Shown here: positions 26,929 through 42,114 of the stretch, piece by piece | How the letters are laid out: every line of letters begins with the position of its first letter | Position numbering within the stretch: position 1 is the first letter of the stretch | Source of the DNA: an uncultured Spirochaetaceae bacterium | Lineage (GTDB): Bacteria > Spirochaetota > Spirochaetia > Treponematales > Treponemataceae | Reading direction: 5' to 3' | NCBI GenBank assembly: GCA_902797305.1 | Contig: CADBSK010000138.1 | Span: 18,185-82,184 of the forward strand | Length of the DNA: 64,000 bases | The notes under the pieces: generated by a model | The model's database searches: none | Seen by the model: the letters and a program-made list of their open reading frames with translations, nothing else | Told to the model about the DNA's origin: nothing | Program-made: the position numbers and the translations under genes

Positions 26929-28446
26929 CTATTTTAAGCGTGTTTCTATGCCTTTCAATTTTTGCTTCATTTCTTCATCTTGAGTAACAAGAAATATTGT
27001 TTCATTTAAGTCTTGACCTGTGGACCAGTAATCAGGATAAATACCTATGCCTTCGCCGTGCCAATTAGAAGACAGTGAAGGAAGAAGGTCCTTTTTAGCA
27101 CCTAATTGTAAACTAATTTTCGAATTTGGAAGAACATATTTACATATATCCATATAGGTACAACACCCAGCTGTATTTTCACCGATAACAATAACTTTAT
27201 CACTACCTAAGAATCTCTTTGCATTAAATATCAAATCTTCACTTACGCTTGCAGATTGCTTATCAACTATAATCAATAATTTACCATCAAATCCTTTTTG
27301 TTTATCTCTTAAATTAATTTTTATATTTTCAAAAAATTTTATTTGTGGATTCTCTTTCTGTTTTTTCAATTCCTTACAAATCTTTTTATAATAATATTTA
27401 TTCTGTTCTCCAGTTGATTGCAAATATGAAACTGTAGATTGAAAGTATCCAGGAGATTCCAGTTCTCTTCTCCTCACCATTTTTTTATTAAACCATTTAT
27501 CAATTCTTTTCTCATCCCTTATAAGATTTACTTTTCCACTCTCCTTAAACAGCGAATAAATAAACCCATTAGCGATATATGCTCTTCCGCCAAGATTAGA
27601 ACGTAAATCAATTATCACATTCTTTTTATCTCTCCAAGTAATACCTAAATTTGCAAATTTCTCAAAAACTATTTCGGCACCTTTTCTATACATTGATTTT
27701 TGTTCTGGTAAAACAAAACTAGATAAACTTGCATACCCTGTATTTTTAGTTTCAATTTCATGATACTTAATTAATGTAGAGCTTAAAAAATGCTTCTCTG
27801 CAGAAACATCTAGCTTCTGTTTTGTATTTTCAAATGAAAAATCAAAACAATTTATATCATTTTTACTTATAATACCTAAGCGATAAATATTTATTCCTTT
27901 TGAAGGGTAATAAAATAAATTATCCTTATCACCTGTATACATTTTCCCAAGACTTATATTTTCTCCGCCATTATCGACAACAAAGAAATAGCTATCATCT
28001 CTTTTTACATATACATTTGAAAAATAAACATTACTTTCCTTAAATAAATTATCGAATTCTTTTCCAGATTTTTTTTCTATACAAAAATGACCGTCTTCTG
28101 GATACGGACGCAAATAATCTGAAAGTTTTTTGTAAAAATCTCTAATGTTAATCTGAGTCTGAGCTCTATATAATTCTTCAAAATAAATTCGTAAATTATC
28201 AGGATTAAAACCTTTTTCAACAAAAATATCATATCCAATATACGATGTTTGAAGATAATATAATAATGCATCTATATCCTGCCCCATCTCATCAAATGTA
28301 ATAAAATTTTTCCGCTGTTCTGACTCCGTAGCAGATGGAATGTTTTTATATTCAACAGACTGGGAGAAAATTAGTCGTCGATTATCACCTGAAAAAACAA
28401 AATTATTTAAATACAAGGCTAATATAATGATAAAAAACTTTTTCAT
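26929..28446 (-). CDS. Secreted S41-family peptidase (paralog 4)
   Basis: Signal peptide; IIDLRSNLGG, DKQSASVSE, IGENTAG, GIYPD. Confidence 0.85.
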   Translation of the reverse strand: MKKFFIIILALYLNNFVFSGDNRRLIFSQSVEYKNIPSATESEQRKNFITFDEMGQDIDALLYYLQTSYIGYDIFVEKGFNPDNLRIYFEELYRAQTQINIRDFYKKLSDYLRPYPEDGHFCIEKKSGKEFDNLFKESNVYFSNVYVKRDDSYFFVVDNGGENISLGKMYTGDKDNLFYYPSKGINIYRLGIISKNDINCFDFSFENTKQKLDVSAEKHFLSSTLIKYHEIETKNTGYASLSSFVLPEQKSMYRKGAEIVFEKFANLGITWRDKKNVIIDLRSNLGGRAYIANGFIYSLFKESGKVNLIRDEKRIDKWFNKKMVRRRELESPGYFQSTVSYLQSTGEQNKYYYKKICKELKKQKENPQIKFFENIKINLRDKQKGFDGKLLIIVDKQSASVSEDLIFNAKRFLGSDKVIVIGENTAGCCTYMDICKYVLPNSKISLQLGAKKDLLPSLSSNWHGEGIGIYPDYWSTGQDLNETIFLVTQDEEMKQKLKGIETRLK

Positions 28447-28470
28447 ATGCTCCTCTCCATATTTTTATCT

Positions 28471-28659
28471 GTGCACTTTTTTTATAAACTTCAACGAAGC
28501 TATTTTCAGAGTTGATCAGACTCTGAGTATTTACATAAGTCTAGAAGAAATACCTTTCAATTTTTGCTTCATTTCTTCATCTTGTGTAACAAGAAAAATT
28601 GTTTCATTTAAGTCTTGACCTGTGGACCAGTAATCAGGATAAATACCTATGCCTTCGCC
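28471..28659. repeat. Cassette-junction repeat (S41 3' end, hairpin and conserved upstream motif)
   Basis: 28471-28638 is nearly identical to 30193-30359; its coding part also matches 26951-27057 and 35520-35626. Confidence 0.85.
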
Positions 28660-30018
28660 ATTCCAATAATCATATTTTTCTATCATTTTGTTTTTTGCAA
28701 AAGCAGTATTAATACCTGCTTTACTATTTGGCAAACAAATCGTAGCTACATCCCAATACATTGCTGAACCACTAGTATTCTCACCAATTACGGAAACACT
28801 TTCAGAACCAAAAATTTCTTTAGCCAGAGGAATTATAATTTCTCCTGCACTAGCAGAATTTCTGTCTGTCAAAATAATTATTTTTCCCTTAAATTTTGAC
28901 TCTTTTGAAAAGAGCTTTGATTTTTTATATCCTGCGGTTTCAATTACCTTTTCTGGATTTTCTATTTGACTGCTTAACAACGACACTTCTTTTTTTGAAG
29001 GTTTCTGGTTTCGATTATTTTTTAATAAGTATTTTGTCTTACAGCTCACTGGCGAAATTAAGTTTTCCCTCAGAGAAAAGGAATCAACAAACCATGAACT
29101 CATATTTGGTATCAACTTCGAAAAATCATTATTGTTCTTTCCAGAATACAAGACATAGAACATCGCTGCAGTATAAGCGGCATCTCCTCCTTCATTGGAT
29201 CTCATATCTAGAATAAGATTTTTTTTATTACCATACTTATATCCACACTCGATGAATTTATTAAAAATAATTTCCTTAGATTTCCGATCAGGAGAATCTA
29301 AATATGGAAGAAAAAATGTATTTAAAGCAATATACGCCGAATCCTTAGAGTCAAATGCTTTATATTTTGCATTTGTTTTTTCAATTGCTCCATCATTAAA
29401 AACTTCTAAACAATAGCTCTTATTATCAAAACTTACATCAATACTATTTAAAGGCTCTTTAGACAACTTAGCAATTCTATATACAGAAGAACCTTTTGAT
29501 GGGTAATAATACAAATTTTGTTGATCATCACAATATTTCAAATCAGGATTAATTCCCACAGTATTCGAAATAGAATAAAAATCCTCCCCTCTTTTTTCAA
29601 CATAACAATCTGTCCAATAACAGGTATATTTTTCAATCATTGTATAAATTTGTTTTTTTCCAATTAATTGAAAATGAGAATCTTTTATATAAGGTTTTAA
29701 GTTATCATTAAAAACTCGAATTAAATCATCTGTATAGATTACCTCTTTTCCTTCAAAATGAGTCATAACTGCATCTTTAAAAGATTTTTCATCAAAACCT
29801 TTATCAAGCATTTTATCATTTCCAGCATAACCCATATTTAAAACATACGACGTAAACTCTAAATCTTCTTTTAATTGTTCATACGAAATTTGCTCTTTGA
29901 CATATTTTTGATCTATAAAGAGTTCAATCTTATCATTAAAACTAATAATTTTCTGAGCCTGTAAAAAAAAACTGCTAGATAAACCTATAAAAACTAAAGC
30001 AACTAATCTCCTTTTCAT
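28531..30018 (-). CDS. Secreted S41-family peptidase (paralog 3)
   Basis: Signal peptide; ILDMRSNEGG, DRNSASAGE, IGENTSG, GIYPD. Confidence 0.85.
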   Translation of the reverse strand: MKRRLVALVFIGLSSSFFLQAQKIISFNDKIELFIDQKYVKEQISYEQLKEDLEFTSYVLNMGYAGNDKMLDKGFDEKSFKDAVMTHFEGKEVIYTDDLIRVFNDNLKPYIKDSHFQLIGKKQIYTMIEKYTCYWTDCYVEKRGEDFYSISNTVGINPDLKYCDDQQNLYYYPSKGSSVYRIAKLSKEPLNSIDVSFDNKSYCLEVFNDGAIEKTNAKYKAFDSKDSAYIALNTFFLPYLDSPDRKSKEIIFNKFIECGYKYGNKKNLILDMRSNEGGDAAYTAAMFYVLYSGKNNNDFSKLIPNMSSWFVDSFSLRENLISPVSCKTKYLLKNNRNQKPSKKEVSLLSSQIENPEKVIETAGYKKSKLFSKESKFKGKIIILTDRNSASAGEIIIPLAKEIFGSESVSVIGENTSGSAMYWDVATICLPNSKAGINTAFAKNKMIEKYDYWNGEGIGIYPDYWSTGQDLNETIFLVTQDEEMKQKLKGISSRLM

Positions 30019-30080
30019 TTCATCCCCACTCTAATTAAACCTCAGAAAGAATTAATTCAATCTGAGGTATTTTTTAAAAC

Positions 30081-30167
30081 TTATCTGCCGCCACCATAAA
30101 CGTGACCATCATCCCCACCTACTACAAGGTCAAGAACTTCTTCAGAAACTTCCAACAAAGTATTCAT
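30081..30167 (-). CDS. Double-glycine RiPP precursor F (28 aa): MNTLLEVSEEVLDLVVGG-DDGHVYGGGR
   Basis: Hand-translated; GGAGG RBS; leader matches the other five; downstream hairpin 30039-30068. Confidence 0.85.
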   Translation of the reverse strand: MNTLLEVSEEVLDLVVGGDDGHVYGGGR

Positions 30168-30192
30168 AGACACCCTCCATATAATTAATTTT

Positions 30193-30359
30193 GTGCACTT
30201 TTTTATAAACTTCAACGAAGCTTTATTCAGAGTTGATCAGACTCTGAGCATTTACATAAGTCTAGAAGAAATACCTTTCAATTTTTGCTTCATTTCTTCA
30301 TCTTGAGTAACAAGAAAAATTGTTTCATTCAAGTCTTGACCTGTGGACCAGTAATCAGG
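30193..30359. repeat. Cassette-junction repeat, second copy
   Basis: Near-identical to 28471-28638. Confidence 0.85.
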
Positions 30360-31760
30360 GAAGATACCAGCGCCCTCACCATACCAACAAGGATTATTTT
30401 CAAGATAATCATTTTTAGAAGAACATAAACTAATAGAAATACCTGTGTTAGGTAAATAATAATCCATCACATCCCAATATTTTGCACAACCACCTGAGTT
30501 CTCACCAATAACTATAACCTTATCAGGACCTATAATTTTTTTTGCTATAAGAACCATTGTCTCGCTTGCACTTAAAGTATTTCTATCTATTAGGAAAACA
30601 AGTTTGCCGTCATAGTTTGAAGAAAATTCAGTAGTTTTATTTTCAAGTGTTTGCGCAAAAGTATTTTTCTGCGGATTTTTCTGCATTTTTTTCATTTTCG
30701 TAACAAAAATTTTACCGTATGTAGTATTTAATTCATCTGTTATTTCAAATAATTTTAAATGTGCAAGAACTGTTGCTGGGGATTCTATTGTCGTAGTTTC
30801 AAAGTATGTAGAATCAAGAAATTTATACATTGTATTCTGTGTTTTATATGAAAATGCAGAATGCTTTTTATCATATAAAGACCAAATTGCATATTCCCCA
30901 TAAACAGCACGCCCCCCAACATTACTTCGTAAATCGATTATTATATTTTGCTTTTTATACCATTTGCTACCAATATTTGAAAATTTCTCAAGTACTAAAT
31001 CCGCCCCCTTTCTATATTTTGAATCTTCAGGAGGTAAAACAAAAGAAGAAAGACTCACATACACAGAACCTTTTGTTTCAATATCATGATATTTAATTGT
31101 AGGCGAATACTGAATAACACCATCGTCGTAAAGCTTTAAAGATATATTACCTTTGTTAAAAAGAAAGTCTTCATTACTTAACTCAGAACTTACAAATTTA
31201 CCTATTCGATATATAGAAGTACCTTTTGATGGATAATAAAACAAACATTTTTTATCACCTATGTATTCATCACCAACTTTTAAGTAAGAAGAATCTGTTT
31301 CACAGACATAATATTTGTTTTCATATTCGTTAACAAAGGTATTTGTTAATAAACAACTCAGATTTTTACAAGCAGATATTGCAAGCAATGCATTATGATC
31401 ATAAATTGTAAAATGACGATCTATTATATATTTAAACAGTACCTTATAAATATCCTCATATACATCTTTAGTAAAAATATTTTCTTGATTCTGGTACTTA
31501 TTCTTTATAAAACTGTCAATTTTTTCTTCATCATAACCATTTAATTTCATCTCTTCATATCCGACATAGGCTTGAGAAATATAATAAAAAAGAAAGTCTA
31601 GGTCATTTTCTAATTCCTTATAAGTTATGGTATTTTTTATATTCTTTGGCCAAACATAAATTTCTTTTAGCTGTGTCATTTCAGAATTTATTAGTTTTGA
31701 TGAAGAATAACTGTTAAACAAAGCTAGAGAAAATACAAAATATAAAATAATTTTTTTCAT
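30252..31760 (-). CDS. Secreted S41-family peptidase (paralog 2)
   Basis: Signal peptide; IIDLRSNVGG, DRNTLSASE, IGENSGG, GIFPD. Confidence 0.85.
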   Translation of the reverse strand: MKKIILYFVFSLALFNSYSSSKLINSEMTQLKEIYVWPKNIKNTITYKELENDLDFLFYYISQAYVGYEEMKLNGYDEEKIDSFIKNKYQNQENIFTKDVYEDIYKVLFKYIIDRHFTIYDHNALLAISACKNLSCLLTNTFVNEYENKYYVCETDSSYLKVGDEYIGDKKCLFYYPSKGTSIYRIGKFVSSELSNEDFLFNKGNISLKLYDDGVIQYSPTIKYHDIETKGSVYVSLSSFVLPPEDSKYRKGADLVLEKFSNIGSKWYKKQNIIIDLRSNVGGRAVYGEYAIWSLYDKKHSAFSYKTQNTMYKFLDSTYFETTTIESPATVLAHLKLFEITDELNTTYGKIFVTKMKKMQKNPQKNTFAQTLENKTTEFSSNYDGKLVFLIDRNTLSASETMVLIAKKIIGPDKVIVIGENSGGCAKYWDVMDYYLPNTGISISLCSSKNDYLENNPCWYGEGAGIFPDYWSTGQDLNETIFLVTQDEEMKQKLKGISSRLM

Positions 31761-31833
31761 ATATAAATGCCTAAAAGTATCTGACTGTTAAAAACAGCCA
31801 GATACTTATCTTTTGTCCTATAAAATTATAAGA

Positions 31834-32028
31834 TTAAAATCCTCCACAAAATACAGGAGTACCACCACCTGCAATAGTAGAACCAGTTCCTTGAAAACCT
31901 GTACCACTTTGATATCCATGACCAGCAGATGGATCTCCTCCAACAACATTCAATAATTCTTCTTCAGATAATTCAAACAGATTTCCGAATAAATTATTAA
32001 AACTTTCTTTTTTTAATGTTTTATTCAT
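31834..32028 (-). CDS. Double-glycine RiPP precursor E (64 aa): leader ..LFELSEEELLNVVGG, core DPSAGHGYQSGTGFQGTGSTIAGGGTPVFCGGF
   Basis: Classic ELSEEEL..VVGG leader; AAAGGA RBS before ATG 32028; downstream hairpin 31775-31807. Confidence 0.88.
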   Translation of the reverse strand: MNKTLKKESFNNLFGNLFELSEEELLNVVGGDPSAGHGYQSGTGFQGTGSTIAGGGTPVFCGGF

Positions 32029-32041
32029 TTTAATTCCTTTC

Positions 32042-32069
32042 ATAATTTAGAAGGCGCCTTCTAAATTAT
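32042..32069. promoter_or_regulatory. Perfect 28-bp palindrome upstream of precursor E
   Basis: ATAATTTAGAAGGC|GCCTTCTAAATTAT. Confidence 0.5.
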
Positions 32070-32152
32070 TTTCTTATTTTTTTTACTTTCATCCGAAAGC
32101 ATATTAAAAGACTCTGCGCAATAGTCTTTAATAATCTCATTTATTTATATTC

Positions 32153-33340
32153 TTACTTATTAATTAAACCCAGTTTAGTTAAAACAAAAATATACATTGG
32201 CTCTGTTCTAGAGATAATCTTACACTCTGCATTCATACCATTTATAAGTTCTATTTTTCTTTTATTACGTTTTTGTACAAAATACGACACGCTCAATTTC
32301 CCCTTTACAATATAACTCGTACTATCAAAATATTGGGAATCTTTTGAAATTTCAGAAACGACACCACCAATTCTTGAATACTCAGAAGATGGATATTTTG
32401 TAAAACTAATCGTAAAATTTTGCCCGCTTTTAATTTCTGCAATATCATCTGATGAAATATAAATATCAATATTTGGATTTTCAGTAGATTCAGGAATTAT
32501 TTTTGCTAGTATAGTATCCTCTAAAACAGAATCACCAATAACAGTCTTTTGAATTTCATCAATATACCCAGACACAGAAGCTCGGATTATAGTCTTTTCT
32601 AATTCATATTGATAATTTAATAAAGAAGACTTCTCATTTTGTATACTTTGATTTAGAGAAATTAATTTTTCAGAAACATCTTTCTTACTAGTAAAAACAT
32701 AATTTTTTAACTCCAATGAATCATCAAGCATTATTTTTTCATATTTTTCTAACTCCGCTTTACTTGTAAAACCTGGATATAGTTTTAATTCCCGTTCATA
32801 ATCCATTTTTGATTTTTCAGCACTTGCCTTTAATTGTTGTACTTTAGAAGAAAATGACTGTATTGCTGCATTACCTGATAATATGGCATCATTAACTTTA
32901 TTGTGCGTAATATAACTATCGATTATTGTTAGTAACTCATTATTATTATTGATTTCCGTGCTTAAACTCGCTATTCTTTTTTCAATAGAAATTATATTTT
33001 GCTTGATAGATTCATTCTTTAGCACATATAAAACTTGACCTTTTAAAACTTTTTGATTAGAAACAAATAACTTTTCTTCCAATACACCACTCGTAATAGG
33101 TACTATTTTTGAGATTTCTTCAGAAGGTCTTATCACCCCTTTTGCCCTTATTACAACATCATATGGCAAAAATATTACTAATAAAAATGAGAAAAGAACA
33201 ATTAATAAAACTGCGATAAATGATGATTTTATTATATCTGGTAACGACATCTCATAATATATTTTCGAAGCTGTTAATTCTTCTATACCAACAAACTTAA
33301 AAGAACAATTATCTTTATCTTTTTTAACCGAATCACTCAT
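32153..33340 (-). CDS. HlyD-family membrane fusion protein for peptide export
   Basis: N-terminal TM, VLKGQVLY, coiled coil, IRASVSGYI, GMNAECKII; adjacent to the C39 ABC exporter. Confidence 0.88.
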   Translation of the reverse strand: MSDSVKKDKDNCSFKFVGIEELTASKIYYEMSLPDIIKSSFIAVLLIVLFSFLLVIFLPYDVVIRAKGVIRPSEEISKIVPITSGVLEEKLFVSNQKVLKGQVLYVLKNESIKQNIISIEKRIASLSTEINNNNELLTIIDSYITHNKVNDAILSGNAAIQSFSSKVQQLKASAEKSKMDYERELKLYPGFTSKAELEKYEKIMLDDSLELKNYVFTSKKDVSEKLISLNQSIQNEKSSLLNYQYELEKTIIRASVSGYIDEIQKTVIGDSVLEDTILAKIIPESTENPNIDIYISSDDIAEIKSGQNFTISFTKYPSSEYSRIGGVVSEISKDSQYFDSTSYIVKGKLSVSYFVQKRNKRKIELINGMNAECKIISRTEPMYIFVLTKLGLINK

Positions 33341-33352
33341 ATTAATATCCTG

Positions 33353-35491
33353 CTACATATTCCAAAGTTTGTAATATAAACCTTTCAACCTTAAAAGTTC
33401 CTCATGAGTTCCTTTTTCCTCTATCTGCCCATTATTCATTACAAAAATTAAATCACTATTTACAATTGTCGAAAGCCTGTGAGCAACTGTAATTGTAATA
33501 ATCTTATTATCACCCAGCTCATCCACGACTTTTTGAAATTCTCTTTCACTAACAGTATCCAAAGCACTTGTGGCTTCATCTAACAAAAGAATTTTCGGAC
33601 AAGATAACAATGCTCTTGCAAGAGCAATACGCTGTCGTTCCCCACCACTTAAAGAAGAACCTCTTTCACTTATTTTTGAAAAATATTTATCTGGAAGATT
33701 TTCTATAAAAGTTGACGCTTGAGCTTTTTCACAGGCATTTTTTACATCTTCCAAAGAATATTCTGATCTACCCATTGTAATATTTTCATATATTGTTCCA
33801 CTAAACAAATACACTTCTTGAGGTACATAGCCTATAGAACTTCTTAAATAATCCGCTGATATATCATTCAAGTTTTGTCCCGATATTGTTATTGAACCAT
33901 TCTCAATTGAGTAAAATTTTAAAAGTAATTTCATAATAGTAGACTTACCACAGCCTGATGCTCCAACAAAAGCAATTTTATGATTATTATCTGTTGTAAA
34001 AGATAAATTTTCAAAAACAGGGTGTCTTACTCCATATCTGAAAGTCACATTATTAAATTCTATCGGTACTGATATATCTTGATTATCCACCGAAATCTGC
34101 TGATCACTATTTAATTTTTCTTTTTCTAGTTCAAAAATCTCACCAATTCTCTCTGCAGAAACCACAGCTTCTTGAATTTGCGGTTGAAAATCAATAAAAC
34201 GATTTAATGGGCCTGTAAAAAATGCTGATAAAGTATTAAAACTTATTAATTGTCCAAGGCTAAGTTTATCTTTTAAGATTAAATATCCACCAATCCAGAA
34301 AATTAAATTTACACTCAAGCCTGAAAGAAAATTTGTAAATAACTCTTTTATATTACCTTTATTCCAAGCCTCCTGTTGCAAATCTACATATTGAACAAGA
34401 TTCTCTTCATATTTTTGGGCAGAATATTCATGAGCATTTAAGCTTTTAATTACATGAAGTCCTGAAAACATTTCTATAAGGAAGGAATTTATTGAAGCTT
34501 TATGTCTTAACTGTTCTCTATAATTTTTAATAAAAAACTTTGAAAAACAATAAATAATTATGCTTGATAGAACAAATATAGAAATTAAAATCAAAAATAA
34601 GCTTAAATTTGAAATTGCTAAATAGATTCCAATAAAAAACATTATTACGAAATCCAAAATCGTACCAAACGCAATATTCGAAAATGCCAATCGAATTTTT
34701 TCACTATCATCAAAACGGCTTATTATTTCACCTGTTTGTCTCGAATCAAAGAAATCCACCGGTAATCTTAAAATATGCTTAATATAAGACATTGATAAAG
34801 AAATATCAGTCTTTAAGGAAAACAATCTTAAAAATTGAGAGCGTATAATCGTTAAAACACTTGTAAAAAAAGACAAAAAGACCGCTATCAAACTCAATGA
34901 ATGTAACGTTGTTATCGCTTTTGCACCTACCACATCATCAATAAAAAACTGAAAATATAATCCGCTACAAATGCCAATCAGACTTAAAAGTAAAGATGCA
35001 ACAAACATTAAAATCACAAATCTAATATGCGGTTTTATTAATGGTAAAAATTTTAATAATTTATTCTGTCCTTTGTTTATCTTAAAATCAGGTGTGGGTG
35101 ATACAAGTACAGAATAACCACTCCAAATCTTAAGAAAATCTTCCCTTCTATATTTGATTTTACTTCCTGCAGGATCAGCCACGTATACTTTTTTTTCTGA
35201 AATTTTATAAACTACAACAAAATGATTCCAACCAGCCTCATAAACAACATGAGCTATAAAAGGCACAGGAAATTCTCCATTTAATACTTCAGAATTTCCT
35301 TTAACTGCCTTTGCATCAAGACTTAAATTCTTACAAGCTTGTAATATGCCTCTTAAAGACGTACCGTTTCTGTCAGTACCAGCTATTTTTCGTATTTGAG
35401 TAATTGAATTATAACTTTTATAATATCGGCAAATCATTGCGATGCAAGCCGCACCACAATCGTTACCGTCAAATTGTTTTATTAATTTCAT
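33353..35491 (-). CDS. Peptidase-containing ABC transporter (C39 peptidase, TMD, ATPase)
   Basis: QFDGNDCGAAC, HFVVV, ADP (Cys-His-Asp); Walker A GASGCGKST; LSGGERQR; DEATSALD. Confidence 0.95.
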   Translation of the reverse strand: MKLIKQFDGNDCGAACIAMICRYYKSYNSITQIRKIAGTDRNGTSLRGILQACKNLSLDAKAVKGNSEVLNGEFPVPFIAHVVYEAGWNHFVVVYKISEKKVYVADPAGSKIKYRREDFLKIWSGYSVLVSPTPDFKINKGQNKLLKFLPLIKPHIRFVILMFVASLLLSLIGICSGLYFQFFIDDVVGAKAITTLHSLSLIAVFLSFFTSVLTIIRSQFLRLFSLKTDISLSMSYIKHILRLPVDFFDSRQTGEIISRFDDSEKIRLAFSNIAFGTILDFVIMFFIGIYLAISNLSLFLILISIFVLSSIIIYCFSKFFIKNYREQLRHKASINSFLIEMFSGLHVIKSLNAHEYSAQKYEENLVQYVDLQQEAWNKGNIKELFTNFLSGLSVNLIFWIGGYLILKDKLSLGQLISFNTLSAFFTGPLNRFIDFQPQIQEAVVSAERIGEIFELEKEKLNSDQQISVDNQDISVPIEFNNVTFRYGVRHPVFENLSFTTDNNHKIAFVGASGCGKSTIMKLLLKFYSIENGSITISGQNLNDISADYLRSSIGYVPQEVYLFSGTIYENITMGRSEYSLEDVKNACEKAQASTFIENLPDKYFSKISERGSSLSGGERQRIALARALLSCPKILLLDEATSALDTVSEREFQKVVDELGDNKIITITVAHRLSTIVNSDLIFVMNNGQIEEKGTHEELLRLKGLYYKLWNM

Positions 35492-35497
35492 TTTAAT

Positions 35498-37006
35498 TTA
35501 CTTTAAGCTAAATTCTATGCCTTTCAATTTTTGCTTCATTTCTTCATCTTGAGTAACAAGAAATATTGTTTCATTTAAGTCTTGACCTGTGGTCCAATAA
35601 TCAGGATAAATACCTACACCTTCACCATGCCAAATTGAGCAACTACTTAAAAATTTTAAATGTTCAGAACCTAAGTGTAATCTTAATTTACTTTCTGGCA
35701 GTAGATAATCATATATCTCACCATATTCCAAACTACCATACGAATTTTCCCCAATTATAATAATGCATTCATTACCAAAAATTTTCTTAGCAAAGACAGG
35801 AAACAATTCTGCCGCGCTAATAGAATTTCTATCTATCAAAAAAATTAACTGTTTGTCCCTTAATGGTGATGATATCCATTTACTTTCCGTATTACGATAC
35901 CAATAATTTATCTTTGGATTTTTCTTATGTTCTTTTAATATTCTTAAAGCATCTCTTTTATGATATTTTGAATTTTCTACTTCGTAGTTATTTATAAAAT
36001 TAAATTTAGCAGTAGCGATAACTGGAGAATCTATAAATTGTTTTTCGAAAAAATTATCTTCAAAAAACAAGTCCATCTTCTTTGTAAATTTTTCAAATTT
36101 CTTTTCGCTTATAAATGTGTTATATAAAAAAGTTTCTATACTATTTAGTTCTCCTCCCTTATTTCCTCTTAAATCAATTACAATATTTTTTTTATTTTTC
36201 CATTCTTGTGAAAGATTTTCAAATTTACTAAAAATAATTTCTGCACCCTTTCTTGTATTTGATTTTTTATGTGGAAACAAAAAACTAGAAATACTCACAT
36301 ACCCAGTCCTATCAGTTTCTATTTGATGATATTTAATTCCAAAACCTGAATCAATGTTTCCATCATCATACACTGGCATTTTTATTTTATTACCATTAAT
36401 TTCAAATTCAGCAGAGTCAATCCGCTTATCAGAAAGCACACCCAAACGATATACATTTTTTCCTTTTGCAGGATAATAAAATACATTTTCCTCTGATAAA
36501 GAAAATGAAGCCCCTTTATAAAATTTATCAAAATCTGATTCAATCAAATAATATTCATTATTCTTCTTTTCAAAAAAAGTATTAGTCCACAAAATTAACC
36601 TTTTTTTAGTTATGTAGTAATTTTCATTTGAAAGATTAGCCGAAATTGAAAAATGTCCATCTTTCACATAAAAAGCTAAATATTCAGAAATATCTTTCAT
36701 TAATTGTCTGGTATTTACGTTTTCTACACCAGTATATTTTTCTGTCAAAAAAATCTTAAATTTTTCTTCTTCAAATCCTTTCTGCCTCATTGAGTCATAA
36801 CCTGCATATGCAGATTTAAGGTAATAACAAATATAATCAATATCCTTCAATAATTGTTCATATGTTATTTCAGAAAGGCCTTTACTAAATTCATTCGGGA
36901 AATAACATTCTTTGATTTCACATTGTTCAGAATATAGAAGAGTATCATTTGCAAAAGTATTAAAACTCACGAAAAGCAATAAAAAAATTGAAATTACTTT
37001 TTTCAT
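35498..37006 (-). CDS. Secreted S41-family peptidase (paralog 1)
   Basis: Signal peptide; VIDLRGNKGG, DRNSISAAE, IGENSYG, GIYPD. Confidence 0.85.
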   Translation of the reverse strand: MKKVISIFLLLFVSFNTFANDTLLYSEQCEIKECYFPNEFSKGLSEITYEQLLKDIDYICYYLKSAYAGYDSMRQKGFEEEKFKIFLTEKYTGVENVNTRQLMKDISEYLAFYVKDGHFSISANLSNENYYITKKRLILWTNTFFEKKNNEYYLIESDFDKFYKGASFSLSEENVFYYPAKGKNVYRLGVLSDKRIDSAEFEINGNKIKMPVYDDGNIDSGFGIKYHQIETDRTGYVSISSFLFPHKKSNTRKGAEIIFSKFENLSQEWKNKKNIVIDLRGNKGGELNSIETFLYNTFISEKKFEKFTKKMDLFFEDNFFEKQFIDSPVIATAKFNFINNYEVENSKYHKRDALRILKEHKKNPKINYWYRNTESKWISSPLRDKQLIFLIDRNSISAAELFPVFAKKIFGNECIIIIGENSYGSLEYGEIYDYLLPESKLRLHLGSEHLKFLSSCSIWHGEGVGIYPDYWTTGQDLNETIFLVTQDEEMKQKLKGIEFSLK

Positions 37007-37070
37007 AAAAACCCCATAACAGTCGGAATGAAAAGGGCCCGTTTCATTCCGACAATATTAAATATTATTT

Positions 37071-37166
37071 TTAGTTACCAGCGTGGCAATAAGGAGCGCA
37101 ACATCCGCCCATAACTTCATCAAGCATCTCTTCAGATACTTCAAGAATAGCAACTGTATTTTTCAT
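37071..37166 (-). CDS. Double-glycine RiPP precursor A (31 aa): MKNTVAILEVSEEMLDEVMGG-CCAPYCHAGN
   Basis: Hand-translated; GGAG RBS; downstream hairpin 37022-37053. Confidence 0.85.
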   Translation of the reverse strand: MKNTVAILEVSEEMLDEVMGGCCAPYCHAGN

Positions 37167-37275
37167 TTTTTCTCCATAGTATTTAATATAAAGTACTTTT
37201 TACTGAATCAACGATTCATTTTTATATTGATCATGATCTCAATAATTTTTGAATTATTGATTATATTTTTTATAT

Positions 37276-37377
37276 TTATCTTCCGAATGGACCCGCATAT
37301 GGTCCAAAATAAATACCACCAGAAATTTCATCCAAACATTCTTCAGAAACTTCCAATAGTAAACTATTTTCAAGCAT
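37276..37377 (-). CDS. Double-glycine RiPP precursor B (33 aa): MLENSLLLEVSEECLDEISGG-IYFGPYAGPFGR
   Basis: Hand-translated; GGAGGT RBS; downstream hairpin 37239-37260. Confidence 0.85.
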   Translation of the reverse strand: MLENSLLLEVSEECLDEISGGIYFGPYAGPFGR

Positions 37378-37531
37378 AAAAACTACCTCCCTTTTTATTA
37401 TCTTGTGCACATTTTTATAAACTTCAACGAAGTTATTCATGAAGTTACACAAACTTCTCGTATCAATTAATAAATATTTTTAACAAGTAGAATTTAATCT
37501 TTCTTGTTAAAAGACCAATAAGAATATTTAT

Positions 37532-37657
37532 TTACCGTGCTGGAAGTCCGCCGTAACCGACACAATAACCTCCGGTAATTTCATCCAAATCTTCTCCTGT
37601 TACTTCTAACAAAAGATTAATTATACAACTATTAATCTTCTCTTTTAATTCTTTCAT
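37532..37657 (-). CDS. Double-glycine RiPP precursor C (41 aa): MKELKEKINSCIINLLLEVTGEDLDEITGG-YCVGYGGLPAR
   Basis: Hand-translated; GGAG RBS (alternative ATG at 37672); downstream hairpin 37477-37512. Confidence 0.85.
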   Translation of the reverse strand: MKELKEKINSCIINLLLEVTGEDLDEITGGYCVGYGGLPAR

Positions 37658-37740
37658 TTCATCGTTCTCCATTTTTTCAAAATTCTCAAGAAAGTTATAC
37701 AGTTCTCAGGTAATTAGAGAACTGTATATTTCACAAACAA

Positions 37741-37869
37741 TTATCGGCTCGGACAACCATAACAAGGCCCCAAACCTAATCCACCAGAAACTTCATCCAA
37801 ATCTTCTCCGGTTACTTCTAACAAAAGATTTATAACGTAATCATTAATCTTCTCTTTTAGTTCTTTCAT
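37741..37869 (-). CDS. Double-glycine RiPP precursor D (42 aa): MKELKEKINDYVINLLLEVTGEDLDEVSGG-LGLGPCYGCPSR
   Basis: Hand-translated; starts 1 nt after the rSAM stop with an AGGAGG RBS; downstream hairpin 37696-37728. Confidence 0.87.
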   Translation of the reverse strand: MKELKEKINDYVINLLLEVTGEDLDEVSGGLGLGPCYGCPSR

Positions 37870-37870
37870 C

Positions 37871-38992
37871 CTATTTTCCTCCTTTAATTAATCTATAATG
37901 ACACCTGCAAGGTTCTGATTTCATATCAGAATGCAAATGAATACCATTACCTAAACAACTCTTCCACTGTTTACAATGCTTACACTGCCCAACCTTTGCC
38001 CATTCACGATTACGCATATTTGTAAATTGATTTTCCCATATATCAGAAAAGTACTCAGTATAAATATTGCCTTGAATAAAATCCTTATTTCTAATGCTTA
38101 AACACCCCGTTACATCCCCATTACACATAACAGAAGCCACATGAACACCCGCTATACAGAAAAAGAAATTCTTTCTTACTTTTCGTTCATATCTTCCTAA
38201 ATATCCTTCACATGAGTATGAACAAGAAATCTTTTTATCATTGCTGTTTTTAAATGTATTTGTTTCAGCAATAAAATCTAGTAGTTGTGTATATTTTTCA
38301 AAAGATAATTTAATACCAGTTTTTGACGCACGCCCTTCTGGCCAAATGGAAAAAATCCTCCAAAATTCTACATTTTTATCAAATAAATAATTTCGTATTT
38401 TTTCCAAATTTTTAAAATTTTCATCATGCACACATGTAATCACATCATATAAAAACTTTGGATTCTTTTTACTTTGTTTAACAATAAAATCAATAGCCTT
38501 ACTAACATTTTCAAAACTTTTCGGATTTCGTCGCAAATAATTATGGTCTTCTTCCAAACCATCTAGAGAAACACTTATTGATAACATTCCTGCAGATACT
38601 AACGAATTAAACCTTTCCTCTGTTAAAAAAAGCCCATTAGTAACAATACCCCATGAAAAACCTCTTTTAACAATCTCTCTTCCTACATCTTCCAAATCTT
38701 TTCGTAAAAGAGGTTCCCCTCCCGTGATACAAACAAAAAGTTTCTTGTCGGGATTATTCTTTTTTATATCATCCAAAACTTTAATAAAGTCCTCTTTTGG
38801 CATATCTTTAACAGAAGAATCAGAAAGACAATCACTACCACAATGCAAACAAGAAAGATTACATCTCAAAGTACATTCCCAAAACAAATAAGTTAATTCA
38901 TGTTCTTTTATAGCTTTATCTCTTAGTTTAAAAAATAATCTTTTAGTCAAATACTCTTTAATAATTGTATTACTCACTTTTTTACACCTCAT
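37871..38992 (-). CDS. Radical SAM/SPASM peptide maturase (TIGR04133-like, splicease-related)
   Basis: LFWECTLRCNLSCLHCGSDC (CxxxCxxC), TGGEPL, SLDG; SPASM CIAG..NGDVTGCLSIR..QGNIY..CKHCKQWKSCLGNG. Confidence 0.85.
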   Translation of the reverse strand: MRCKKVSNTIIKEYLTKRLFFKLRDKAIKEHELTYLFWECTLRCNLSCLHCGSDCLSDSSVKDMPKEDFIKVLDDIKKNNPDKKLFVCITGGEPLLRKDLEDVGREIVKRGFSWGIVTNGLFLTEERFNSLVSAGMLSISVSLDGLEEDHNYLRRNPKSFENVSKAIDFIVKQSKKNPKFLYDVITCVHDENFKNLEKIRNYLFDKNVEFWRIFSIWPEGRASKTGIKLSFEKYTQLLDFIAETNTFKNSNDKKISCSYSCEGYLGRYERKVRKNFFFCIAGVHVASVMCNGDVTGCLSIRNKDFIQGNIYTEYFSDIWENQFTNMRNREWAKVGQCKHCKQWKSCLGNGIHLHSDMKSEPCRCHYRLIKGGK

Positions 38993-38997
38993 TATTT

Positions 38998-40209
38998 TTA
39001 TATTTCAAAATAGTTTTGTTTTCTTTTTAATAATTTATATGAATTCTCTATTCTTTCAGTGAAATCACAGCTTTTTTTATTATCATGAACACACCCCCCA
39101 TTACATTGATTCTTAATACAACATTTATCACATTTTTTATTTGAATACGAATCAGAAGTCAAATAAAAGTATTCAACTTCAGGGTTTATATTTTTCATTT
39201 TTTTCAAATCAAAAACTGATTTTTCAGCTTGCCCTAAATCATTCCAGCATTTTAGCATGTTACCATACCAATCAACTATATAAGTCTGTGCTTTTTGCGC
39301 ACTACACATAAAACAACTAGAAACTTTTTTCAAATAGTCCCTTTCATAAAAATTAAGTTGATTATCATATTTTAGTATTTCGAGGAATGATTCTTCATCC
39401 GATACTTCATTACTAATCTTATTCTGACAAGAAAAGAGATCAGTTTCTTTGGTAATATCCACCTTAAAAAAACTCCCATATCTTTGCAGGAAATAATTTC
39501 TCAGCTTTTGAATATCTTTAATATTGTTATCATTGACCTCAAATAAAATAGTAATAACGGGCGTATAAAAATTTGTCTTAAAGAAATTAAAAATTAATTC
39601 GCACTTATCCAAAAGTTTAATTAACTCAGATTTATTAGAAAAAATTGTTGCATGTATTAAAAATTGTAGATTATTTACACGCAAATCTTTAGTTATTCTT
39701 AATTCGCCTTCGCTTAATCCTAAGGTATTAGTTATAATTCCGTTATATACAATAATTCTTTTTGACTCTAATTCTTTTGTTAATTTTTCAATTAATAACG
39801 CTGTCTTATCAAAGTCTAATATATTCCAGTAGAATCTTATAATTTTTTGATTTTTTCGTTCACAAAATAGAACAAGTCTATCTAAGAACTCCTCACTAAT
39901 AATTATTCCACTTTTATTTTCAGGACAAACATAAATAGTTAAAACACTACTAAGCTGTTTTTTTAGCATTCGATAATTTCTGATTCTCTCAAAATCATCA
40001 GTTGTTTTATCTGATACAACTTCTATATTTTGTAGTTTTTCTAATAAACTATGATTTAAGTCTTCCTTTGAAGCTATAAAGTTTTCGATATTATTTCTTT
40101 CATCTTCAGTTATCTCAATAAATACACCCGTCTCTCCGGCATATAACACCCAAGACTTGTCCGAAGCAAATACTTTATTATGTTTATTCCACCAATATTT
40201 CGCACTCAT
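38998..40209 (-). CDS. Pseudo-radical SAM protein: RRE-like N-terminus, no CxxxCxxC, retained SPASM
   Basis: LTIYVCPENKSG sits where CxxxCxxC is expected; C-terminal CSA..YIVDWYGNMLKCW..KCDKCCIKNQCNGGC..C. Confidence 0.72.
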   Translation of the reverse strand: MSAKYWWNKHNKVFASDKSWVLYAGETGVFIEITEDERNNIENFIASKEDLNHSLLEKLQNIEVVSDKTTDDFERIRNYRMLKKQLSSVLTIYVCPENKSGIIISEEFLDRLVLFCERKNQKIIRFYWNILDFDKTALLIEKLTKELESKRIIVYNGIITNTLGLSEGELRITKDLRVNNLQFLIHATIFSNKSELIKLLDKCELIFNFFKTNFYTPVITILFEVNDNNIKDIQKLRNYFLQRYGSFFKVDITKETDLFSCQNKISNEVSDEESFLEILKYDNQLNFYERDYLKKVSSCFMCSAQKAQTYIVDWYGNMLKCWNDLGQAEKSVFDLKKMKNINPEVEYFYLTSDSYSNKKCDKCCIKNQCNGGCVHDNKKSCDFTERIENSYKLLKRKQNYFEI

Positions 40210-41671
40210 TTTCTAACTCTCTCTTCATGTATAAACTTGTAAATATATTATTTGAAAATCCAAGTATATAATCTTGTTCTGTTTTATAATAAGAATCAAT
40301 TTTTAATTCAGGACTATTTATCCAGAATTTTTCATACAAATCCTCATCAAAACTTGAAATCTTTGATAATTTTACAGGTATTTCAGAAATATCAATATCT
40401 TTATAGATATTTTGACCATAAGGCCATGCCGTTTTTTCATTTAATTTTCTATCATATAATGGAATTATCGAAGATATTTTTTCTACAAAAATATCAAAGA
40501 TCTTTTTATTTATCTGATTCGATTGTTCAGAAGTTATTATTTTCATTTCAACTGCACATAGCAAGCATGCATGAACAAGACTTCCGATAAATTGTGCAAA
40601 GAAATTTTTACCACTTTCTTCTCTTGCTGATAAATTAGAGTATAAAGAAGTTCTATCTAACCTATTCCTACAATATTCTTTCCAATCTTCCGGAAACAAA
40701 AATGGAAAACGCGCACGATCTAAGCTAGTTATATCAAAATCTCGATATACAACACGCCCTGTAAATTTCCAGTCCTTTGAAATTTCAATTAAAGTATTCT
40801 GACAATGACATTCAAGAGATATACCAAATCGAGAAAAAATCTCAAAAAACTTTTCAAAAATTGGCATTATAAAATCATTTATAAAAAAATCCTCAAATTC
40901 TTTACCTGAAGCCAAATATATTTTTTGAAAATAACAATCATTTTTGTCAACAACAGAAGTTAACGATACAATACTATAAATTGCAGTTCCTTCATTATCA
41001 TCAAAAATATTATCAAGACGTCTGATTACATTACCAAAACTTTTAATCTTATTAGGACCATAAGTGATATTATACTTTTTAGAAAAATGAATTGGATAAT
41101 CACCTGTTATTCCAAAAGCACCAATATCTTTTAATATAGAAAAATCATCTATCTTACTAACAATGTTTGCAGTACATTTTGAAAAGAAAAACTGACCATC
41201 TGCAGAAGTCCAGTCAATCTGGCGGGCACCATTAGCAACATTACCAAAAATGGAAACCTTAACAATAAAATATTCACTTGTATAAATATTTTTTACAACT
41301 AAAGATCTATAAGATGACGTTGGTGTAGCCTCAAATATAGATTTCTCTGGAGATATAAATTCATACTTATCCGCAATCCAATCTGTAAATATTTTTTCTG
41401 AAGTTGGATGAACAAAAAATGGATAATAAACAGAACCTTTTCGCTCTATAAAAATATGCTTCTCAAAAAATCCTTTTTGAGTTTCATCAATTTGTATTTT
41501 ATCTTTGCCAAAAGGGATCAAAAAATATCCAATTTTAAATACATTTTGACTTGATGGTTTATATTCTTCTGGAATATCCAATATAAATGAAATAGAATTG
41601 TCATTCTTATAAAGAGAATAATTATTTTTTACTTGCTCTGAATAAATAAACTTTTCTAATTTAACTCTCAT
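40184..41671 (-). CDS. IucA/IucC (NRPS-independent siderophore synthetase)-like protein
   Basis: FFVHP, ATPTSSYRSL, VKVSI..VANGAR, GISLECHCQNTLI, VVYRDFD resemble NIS synthetase motifs. Confidence 0.72.
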   Translation of the reverse strand: MRVKLEKFIYSEQVKNNYSLYKNDNSISFILDIPEEYKPSSQNVFKIGYFLIPFGKDKIQIDETQKGFFEKHIFIERKGSVYYPFFVHPTSEKIFTDWIADKYEFISPEKSIFEATPTSSYRSLVVKNIYTSEYFIVKVSIFGNVANGARQIDWTSADGQFFFSKCTANIVSKIDDFSILKDIGAFGITGDYPIHFSKKYNITYGPNKIKSFGNVIRRLDNIFDDNEGTAIYSIVSLTSVVDKNDCYFQKIYLASGKEFEDFFINDFIMPIFEKFFEIFSRFGISLECHCQNTLIEISKDWKFTGRVVYRDFDITSLDRARFPFLFPEDWKEYCRNRLDRTSLYSNLSAREESGKNFFAQFIGSLVHACLLCAVEMKIITSEQSNQINKKIFDIFVEKISSIIPLYDRKLNEKTAWPYGQNIYKDIDISEIPVKLSKISSFDEDLYEKFWINSPELKIDSYYKTEQDYILGFSNNIFTSLYMKRELENECEILVE

Positions 41672-41705
41672 CTTATACTACTTTAAAATAATCTACTTTA
41701 TATTA

Positions 41706-41737
41706 AATATGATATAAGACTATATCATATTCGTCAA
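41706..41737 (-). promoter_or_regulatory. Sigma70-type promoter of the RiPP operon overlapped by an 11-bp inverted repeat (candidate operator)
   Basis: Minus strand TTGACG(41737-41732)-N17-TATCAT(41714-41709); AATATGATATA-agac-TATATCATATT at 41706-41731. Confidence 0.62.
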
Positions 41738-41750
41738 TAACAATTATTAT

Positions 41751-41926
41751 AAAAATATACCTAAATTTATAGAAAAAATTGCAGAAGCTCTTGAAATAGA
41801 TCCTATTTTATTATTTAAAGATTCAAATACAAATGCAAAACTCAAAAAAAACAAAAAAAAATAACAAACGAATTAACAAACATTCTTGAAAAAGATATCG
41901 AGAGAGTTTTGTATAATTACTTATAA
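41751..41926 (+). pseudogene. Remnant of an XRE/HTH transcriptional regulator (C-terminal half, no start, frameshift in A-run)
   Basis: Translates KNIPKFIEKIAEALEIDPILLFKDS.., resembling the last helices of XRE proteins; upstream in-frame stop and no ATG. Confidence 0.5.
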
Positions 41927-42114
41927 AAAAAACTACCCCAGCACATCACACTCCGCGTAGAAATCTCCGCGATAAAGTTTCCAGTCAAGCTCTGCCCAGT
42001 CATCTTCATTAGACGGACTGGGCTCGGAGTCTTGTATAGAATATTCTCGGCGAGGCTCATCATAGGGACCGTAGCCGTATTTGTCAGCAAAACTACAATC
42101 ATTTTTCTGGCTTT

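Follow-up and report, generated by a model that had tools for sequence, protein, structure and literature searches.

A shortened siderophore-synthetase homolog that likely tailors small ribosomal peptides in an uncultured Spirochaetaceae bacterium

Why should a gene resembling the IucA/IucC-type siderophore synthetases stand at the head of a gene cluster for peptides that are made on ribosomes and modified after translation (RiPPs)? The question is raised by a 64,000-nucleotide stretch of DNA (hereafter, the window) from an uncultured Spirochaetaceae bacterium (GenBank assembly GCA_902797305.1, contig CADBSK010000138.1, positions 18,185 to 82,184). Here a minus-strand open reading frame (ORF) at 40184..41671, with an ATG start, encodes a 495-residue protein that, from its motifs and modelled fold, is a predicted ATP-dependent ligase related to the nonribosomal peptide synthetase-independent siderophore (NIS) synthetases. 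The original prediction, made from the DNA letters, had listed four IucA/IucC-type motifs, all of which were located in this ORF (HP at residues 88-89, PTSSYR at 117-122, ECHCQN at 287-292 and YRDFD at 309-313); none of 20,000 shuffles reproduced the ordered set. It had also pointed to an overlap with the adjacent gene for a degenerate radical S-adenosylmethionine (rSAM) protein (38998-40209), and this overlap measures 26 bp. Our analysis indicates that the ligase is likely to consume ATP in order to introduce a ring or a chemical group into small ribosomal peptides.

The ligase sequence alone produced no match to Pfam IucA_IucC and just one to FhuF (E=0.013), while the kinases returned as nearest PDB relatives by a single-sequence search (E≥0.16) were not significant and were set aside. 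A search of 5.8 billion proteins yielded 34 matches, 30 of which were aligned with the query (alignment A1, n=31; two partial or fused and two remote matches were excluded). At E≤0.01, 27 of the 31 members match FhuF and eight match IucA_IucC. All five PDB matches of the A1 profile are NIS synthetases, albeit weak ones (E 0.04-0.17), and a broader profile (A4) reached AsbB with an E-value of 9.5e-13. Structure prediction and a Foldseek search, the check proposed at the outset, bore out the family assignment: the AlphaFold2 model (predicted local distance difference test, pLDDT, 87.5; predicted template modelling score, pTM, 0.88) retrieved NIS synthetases in all 25 top rows (best E 9.7e-14), and VIA gave Z 27.0 with AcsD (2w02; root-mean-square deviation 3.6 over 370 aligned residues) and also Z 27.0 with AsbB, the first non-NIS match being SelO at Z 12.3. 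Model residues 4-416 superpose on AcsD residues 157-560 and thus comprise the finger and palm domains of the NIS fold. The N-terminal ∼150 residues of the NIS enzymes, the domain named the 'thumb', are absent, model residue 4 falling near AcsD residue 157 with the same offset in all NIS chains. At the opposite end, residues ∼424-486 form an extra strand-rich (beta) domain of ∼65 residues, for which no match was found in Atlas.

HMMER alignments place AcsD residues S279, R281, K293, R305 and E442 at S120, R122, K138, R150 and E287 of the ligase, and H444, Q446, N447 and D464 at H289, Q291, N292 and D311; these nine catalytic or ATP-site equivalents are invariant in 31 of the 31 A1 members. According to the AcsD study (PMC3323832), adenylation depends critically on R305 and the general base has been proposed to be E442, the products are esters, amides and, tentatively, thioesters, and titles in the reference list name macrocyclisation within the NIS family. 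From the predicted fold combined with the invariant catalytic positions we infer that the protein is an active adenylating ligase. The family is real and conserved, and apparently it has not been described in print, representing a known fold in a role apparently not known for it; our literature search, which covered few subscription papers, found no NIS enzyme acting on a RiPP.

The substrate of this ligase is suggested by its genomic company. Sixteen related loci were found, of which L009 duplicates L005, leaving 15 loci with 17 ligase copies. Downstream DNA is available for 14 of the copies; in L012, L013 and L015 the DNA ends in or just after the ligase. In all 14 the next large gene encodes a member of the same rSAM family (nine whole pairs, one cut by a contig end and four broken), mostly at a distance of -14 to +3 nt, and the ligase and rSAM trees agree in their main clades. 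G180 contains two tandem pairs with one precursor per pair, and two alleles carry a joint in-frame deletion, with differing breakpoints, that fuses the start of the ligase to the end of the rSAM. Among the 15 loci, S41 peptidases are encoded in 11, double-glycine precursors in 10 and a C39 exporter in nine (one split, one truncated). Since the flanks vary among loci, the ligase-rSAM unit is mobile. It is also rare, with the ligase present in 6 of 301 genomes of the genus Treponema and unmatched in 400 other genomes of the phylum sample; one candidate match (G804, E 3.7e-4) lies inside an unrelated 630-residue gene and was dropped. A transglutaminase-like gene was observed at L003 12713-13561, flanked by two ligase-rSAM pairs.

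The partner in the window (38998..40209, minus strand) is a pseudo-rSAM/SPASM protein with a likely N-terminal RiPP recognition element (RRE), in which CxxxCxxC and GGEP have been lost and the SPASM cysteines retained. CNFRCSYC and GGEP are present in the rSAM of 7 of 10 whole pairs; both are lost in the window and likewise in L001 and L002, three loci that group as a single clade in the ligase tree as well as in the rSAM tree. Between the loci of this clade the ligases are 59-72% and the partners 35-46% identical, with rough ratios of nonsynonymous to synonymous substitution (dN/dS, at a saturated dS >1) of ∼0.17-0.28 and ∼0.26-0.53, respectively; by these estimates, both genes are under purifying selection. 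The structure of the partner matches CteB (5why) best, N-terminal part included: residues 12-61 form three strands followed by helices within a full-length match to CteB, with no Pfam RRE match in this region. Its intact relatives match TIGR04334 with E-values from 4e-57 to 3e-69, every score being below the cut-off. In the L001 and L002 clusters the ligase and the pseudo-rSAM are the only modifying enzymes. Because the dead rSAM is kept there beside an intact ligase, and no other modifying enzyme accompanies them, it is most simply viewed as a scaffold that is retained under selection and would present the peptide.

A genome-wide pattern search found six double-glycine precursors, all inside a low-GC island of the window (26929-41760; GC 0.285 against 0.43 and 0.38 in the flanks), where together with a matching C39 exporter (TIGR01193) they constitute a RiPP cluster. 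All are encoded on the minus strand: precursor A (37741..37869, core LGLGPCYGCPSR), B (37532..37672, core YCVGYGGLPAR), C (37276..37452, core IYFGPYAGPFGR, its likely start being an internal ATG, MLENS...), D (37071..37166, core CCAPYCHAGN), E (31834..32043, core DPSAGHGYQSGTGFQGTGSTIAGGGTPVFCGGF) and F (30081..30215, core DDGHVYGGGR, likely start MNTLL...). Core E, already named in the original prediction, is thus present; its L001 homolog, encoded directly 3' of the pseudo-rSAM gene, shares SAGHGYQS and QGTG with it and likewise ends in C-G-G-(G)-X, the single Cys lying at -4 in core E and at -5 in the homolog. Core D, ending in C-H-A-G-N, is identical in L001 (14615-14707), the ligases of the two loci being 72% identical, and its Asn end is like that of microcin C precursors. 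Cores A-F end in R, R, R, N, F and R, and three of the four Cys-containing window cores have Cys at -4 or -5 (p ∼0.045). A second test of C-terminal patterns (6/9, p 3e-5) is no evidence, the residue classes having been picked after viewing the cores. Across 20 cores, 18 lack Lys and eight lack Asp and Glu, and the C-terminal carboxylate is the sole acid common to all.

These data bear on the earlier proposal of a RiPP tailoring ligase in an uneven way. Its general form is upheld by the NIS fold, the intact catalytic positions and the constant place in RiPP clusters, from which context it is probable that the ligase acts on a precursor peptide at all; macrocyclisation through side-chain isopeptides, one of the outcomes suggested, is unlikely given the scarcity of Lys and acidic side chains in the cores. 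The reading that we favour, albeit tentatively, is that the ligase adenylates the C-terminal carboxylate of the precursor and then closes a ring or forms a conjugate (ester, thioester or amide), because the C-terminus is the only carboxylate shared by the cores and because AcsD chemistry covers esters, amides and, tentatively, thioesters. In the proposed mechanism, the RRE-like domain of the adjacent rSAM or pseudo-rSAM would bind the leader and present the peptide to the ligase, which would convert the C-terminal carboxylate to peptidyl-AMP with release of PPi. E287 would activate a nucleophile, in the simplest case a Cys, Thr or Ser side chain at -4 or -5, to give a small lactone or thiolactone; alternatively, an external amine could attack the peptidyl-AMP. 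The C39 transporter would then remove the leader and export the product, with the S41 peptidases serving maturation or immunity. We can envisage here, again without giving it even odds, a new RiPP class defined by an NIS-fold maturase that would cyclise or conjugate the peptide C-terminus, be recruited by an rSAM reduced in this lineage to a presenting scaffold, and belong as one branch to a large and overlooked family of shortened NIS-like ligases working on polypeptides rather than on siderophores.

Several observations weigh against C-terminal adenylation on a pseudo-rSAM scaffold. The RRE region is conserved no better than the whole pseudo-rSAM (46% vs 46% and 34% vs 35%), its SPASM part being conserved better (54% and 43%), and a stretch of the xxSFGL type, found in longer leaders, is missing from the short leaders of L001 and L002. 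The test of Cys positions was post hoc, and the Cys may be a remnant of rSAM thioether chemistry; near their C-terminal ends, precursors B and C contain no nucleophile. Most loci are close kin, amounting to about four lineages at ≤45% identity, and shortened NIS relatives that are only remotely related are found outside RiPP settings. Four Treponema regions with rSAM and double-glycine genes (G229, G186, G130 and G179) have no ligase match; CxxxCxxC is intact in their rSAMs, candidate precursors are present in each, and a C39 exporter is found in three (the G179 contig ends early). The existence of such clusters marks the ligase as an optional addition, and the C-termini of their precursors show no obvious difference. 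A further candidate control, G010, was rejected, its rSAM starting 142 nt from the contig end. Among ligase-free rSAM clusters, L047 (5474-8093) and L048 (6242-7779) were seen to encode several long double-glycine precursors with Thr runs and Ser/Gly tails.

The main rival to C-terminal adenylation reverses the roles of the substrates: the ligase would, like AcsD, adenylate a small acid (citrate or another) and acylate a Ser, Thr, Tyr or Cys of the precursor, the peptide being the nucleophile. The three arginines R319, R321 and R350, invariant in the close clade, could bind extra carboxylates, and the precursors of the intact-rSAM clade contain 15-24 Ser/Thr. On the other hand, cores B, C, D and F have neither Ser nor Thr, Ser/Thr-rich precursors also occur in ligase-free clusters, and AcsD T301, a citrate contact, is replaced by Ala in 30 of 31 relatives. 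Even though the natural acceptor of AcsD is a serine hydroxyl (PMC3323832), we consider this route unlikely, at perhaps one chance in a handful.

Distinctly less probable is that the ligase makes a separate small molecule, such as a rhizoferrin-like siderophore or another amide or ester, and merely travels in the island. Every solved homolog is a small-molecule ligase, rhizoferrin-type pathways need a single synthetase, and a remote shortened relative adjoins an MFS transporter gene on a Methylocystis plasmid. The absence of a lysine hydroxylase, an acyltransferase and a siderophore receptor, first remarked for the window, was found to hold more widely. Searches of the bacterium's own genome (87% complete) gave no match to PF13434 (Lys/Orn hydroxylase), PF13523 (siderophore acyltransferase) or PF04183, and a single TonB receptor on another contig, with its best score, below the cut-off, to a B12-receptor model. 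In the six ligase-bearing genomes searched (84-98% complete), PF13434 is absent from all and PF13523 never exceeds the cut-off (it falls below it in 5 of 5 related genomes), and a loose search for enterobactin-type genes returned just two generic isochorismatase-family matches. A siderophore could still be made, because rhizoferrin-type pathways need neither hydroxylase nor acyltransferase. The neighbourhoods of the homologs, in which ordinary siderophore clusters had been sought, argue otherwise: of 38 other proteins flanking the ligase loci, none is an MFS exporter, a hydroxylase, a siderophore acyltransferase or a receptor (a 39th scanned is an MFS protein, belonging to control locus L046), and 16 promoter regions upstream of the ligase loci contain no Fur-like match. 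Such a pathway would also leave the retained dead rSAM and the joint deletions unexplained.

Somewhat more doubtful again, at about one chance in ten, is a SidJ-like modification by carboxylate adenylation of some protein target, be it the transporter, the partner rSAM or a different one. Kinase-like proteins come next in the fold search, as the SelO match exemplifies; zeta-toxin, TIR, SelO or nucleotidyltransferase domains are joined to the ligase-like part in some remote relatives; and a crude signal-peptide rule predicts export for 64 of 98 full-length remote relatives. The same rule predicts export for none of the 30 close relatives, the ligase gene stays with precursor and exporter genes, and a dead rSAM would have nothing to gain from activation. 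We regard as very improbable the class IIb-microcin logic raised in the original prediction, by which the C-terminal carboxylate of a Ser-rich tail would be joined to a siderophore, as by MceIJ. Ser runs do terminate several precursors, yet no window core has Ser as its last residue, and precursors in the ligase-free G229 and G186 clusters have Ser/Gly-rich tails, which are therefore no hallmark of the ligase; this idea is further weakened by the lack of a siderophore pathway in the searches described above. That the ligase is a decaying or inactive passenger, as the 4 broken pairs among 14 and its rarity in the genus might suggest, is the least probable of all, with catalytic residues invariant at 35-45% identity and dN/dS of 0.10-0.28.

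Beyond the close clade, the ligase profile matches 731 representative proteins at E≤0.001 and 40 at 1e-30, and most of 55 remote relatives scanned match IucA_IucC or FhuF weakly. Shortened NIS-like domains were observed together with ThsB-TIR, zeta-toxin, SelO or cytidylyltransferase domains in P0063, P0086, P0092, P0124, P0123 and P0087, the NIS-like part of P0124 being detected by profile alone. Overall, the shortened NIS-like ligases form a wide group of diverse functions, in which a RiPP link is shown for the close clade only.

The remaining genes of the island are also on the minus strand, in the order ligase, pseudo-rSAM/SPASM, TIGR04133 rSAM, precursors A-D, S41, C39 exporter, HlyD, precursor E, S41, precursor F, S41 and S41. 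The exporter, a C39 peptidase ABC protein scoring above the TIGR01193 cut-off, lies at 33353..35491 and the HlyD-type adaptor at 32153..33340. The four S41 peptidases (35498..37006, 30252..31760, 28531..30018 and 26929..28446, the last at the end of the island) have near-identical C-terminal ends; a search of the PDB with an S41 peptidase sequence gave no match, and a likeness to the nisin-resistance protease is possible. Cassettes of a precursor followed by S41 recur in the window (26929-37166), L001 (12765-16275) and L002 (6217-7896), and could possibly be cognate immunity or maturation pairs.

The rSAM/SPASM protein at 37871..38992 scores above the TIGR04133 cut-off, and our search found no paper on this family, which may belong among the spliceases. 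It was considered as a constant partner of the ligase and rejected: in the relatives it is above the cut-off in one of five, there on another contig, and its gene is an insertion peculiar to the window, unlinked to the ligase in every related locus. At L033 8531-10067 (G272) a TIGR04133 rSAM adjoins a lipoprotein with ACYG, and since precursor A of the window has PCYG, this suggests recruitment of the enzyme from a lipoprotein to peptides. The splicease motif XYG (PMC10849128) is present in cores A, B and F, which may be substrates of this rSAM enzyme.

Upstream of the ligase, a promoter-like site (TTGACG-17-TATCAT, 41706..41737, minus strand), which is not conserved in the relatives and has no Fur-like match, is overlapped by a perfect 11-4-11 palindrome (41706-41731) that covers the predicted -10 box, is absent in the relatives and is a possible operator; such promoter-like sites number 83 against 89.7 in shuffles, as expected by chance. 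In L004 and L006 the spacer after TTGAC is a TA repeat of differing length, ∼45-60 nt 5' of the ligase start, with a weaker version in L005/L010, a sequence pattern that suggests phase-variable ligase expression by slippage. On the plus strand, 41745-41935 holds the frameshift-split remnant of a divergent small gene (KFIEKIAEALEIDPILLFK...), which to us resembles the end of a helix-turn-helix regulator. In four bovine-gut metatranscriptomes from one study (shares 0.06-0.14), RNA contigs that belong to related strains cover the precursor genes and pieces of the ligase; consisting of contigs with no silent control, these data establish neither transcription nor a ranking of genes. Two such contigs join precursor C/D DNA to the precursor A leader within 37564-37780, skipping 215 nt, which may mean that the strain has fewer copies of the precursors or that the near-identical A and B leaders were joined wrongly.

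Should the proposed activity be true, the few routes known for activating the carboxylate of a ribosomal peptide would gain a new fold, with possible use in peptide cyclisation or conjugation, and a family so far known from siderophores alone would be seen moving into RiPP chemistry. Many short 'IucA/IucC family' annotations among the 731 representatives would then be misread as siderophore genes. Given the natural series of intact rSAM, dead rSAM and no ligase, two genes and a peptide of 30-70 residues would allow a direct test.

Comparison with known systems places the ligase closest to the NIS synthetases (AcsD, AsbB, SbnC, IucA/IucC, DesD and AlcC), with which it shares the fold over residues 4-416 (Z 20-27) and the motif series; it differs in that the solved chains align with it only from residue ∼130-160 onwards, at 11-16% identity, in its extra C-terminal domain and in lacking a siderophore gene context. 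The partner is like the CteB-type RRE-rSAM-SPASM maturases (TIGR04334 Clo7bot, TIGR04463, CefB and the PapB neighbourhood) in having CteB as its best structural match and in its Cys-containing precursors, unlike them in lacking CxxxCxxC in the window and in family scores below cut-off; to our knowledge, no ligase partner is known for those families. The class IIb microcins (MccE492, MceIJ) offer a likeness in the double-glycine precursor, the peptidase ABC exporter with its adaptor, Ser-rich tails in some relatives and modification at the C-terminal carboxylate (only proposed for the window peptides), and a difference in the enzyme used, no siderophore, glycosyltransferase or MceCDIJ-like genes being found among the island genes. 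MccB and the agr-type thiolactones likewise depend on carboxylate activation, with unrelated folds. Graspetide ATP-grasp ligases and lasso cyclases, according to PMC10373908, activate a peptide carboxylate to form an ester, amide or thioester; their folds (ATP-grasp or AsnB) are unrelated to the NIS fold of the ligase, and they use the Asp/Glu side chains that many cores here are missing. Finally, the spliceases PlpX/PlpY, as described in PMC10849128, act on an XYG motif like that of cores A, B and F and need an accessory RRE protein.

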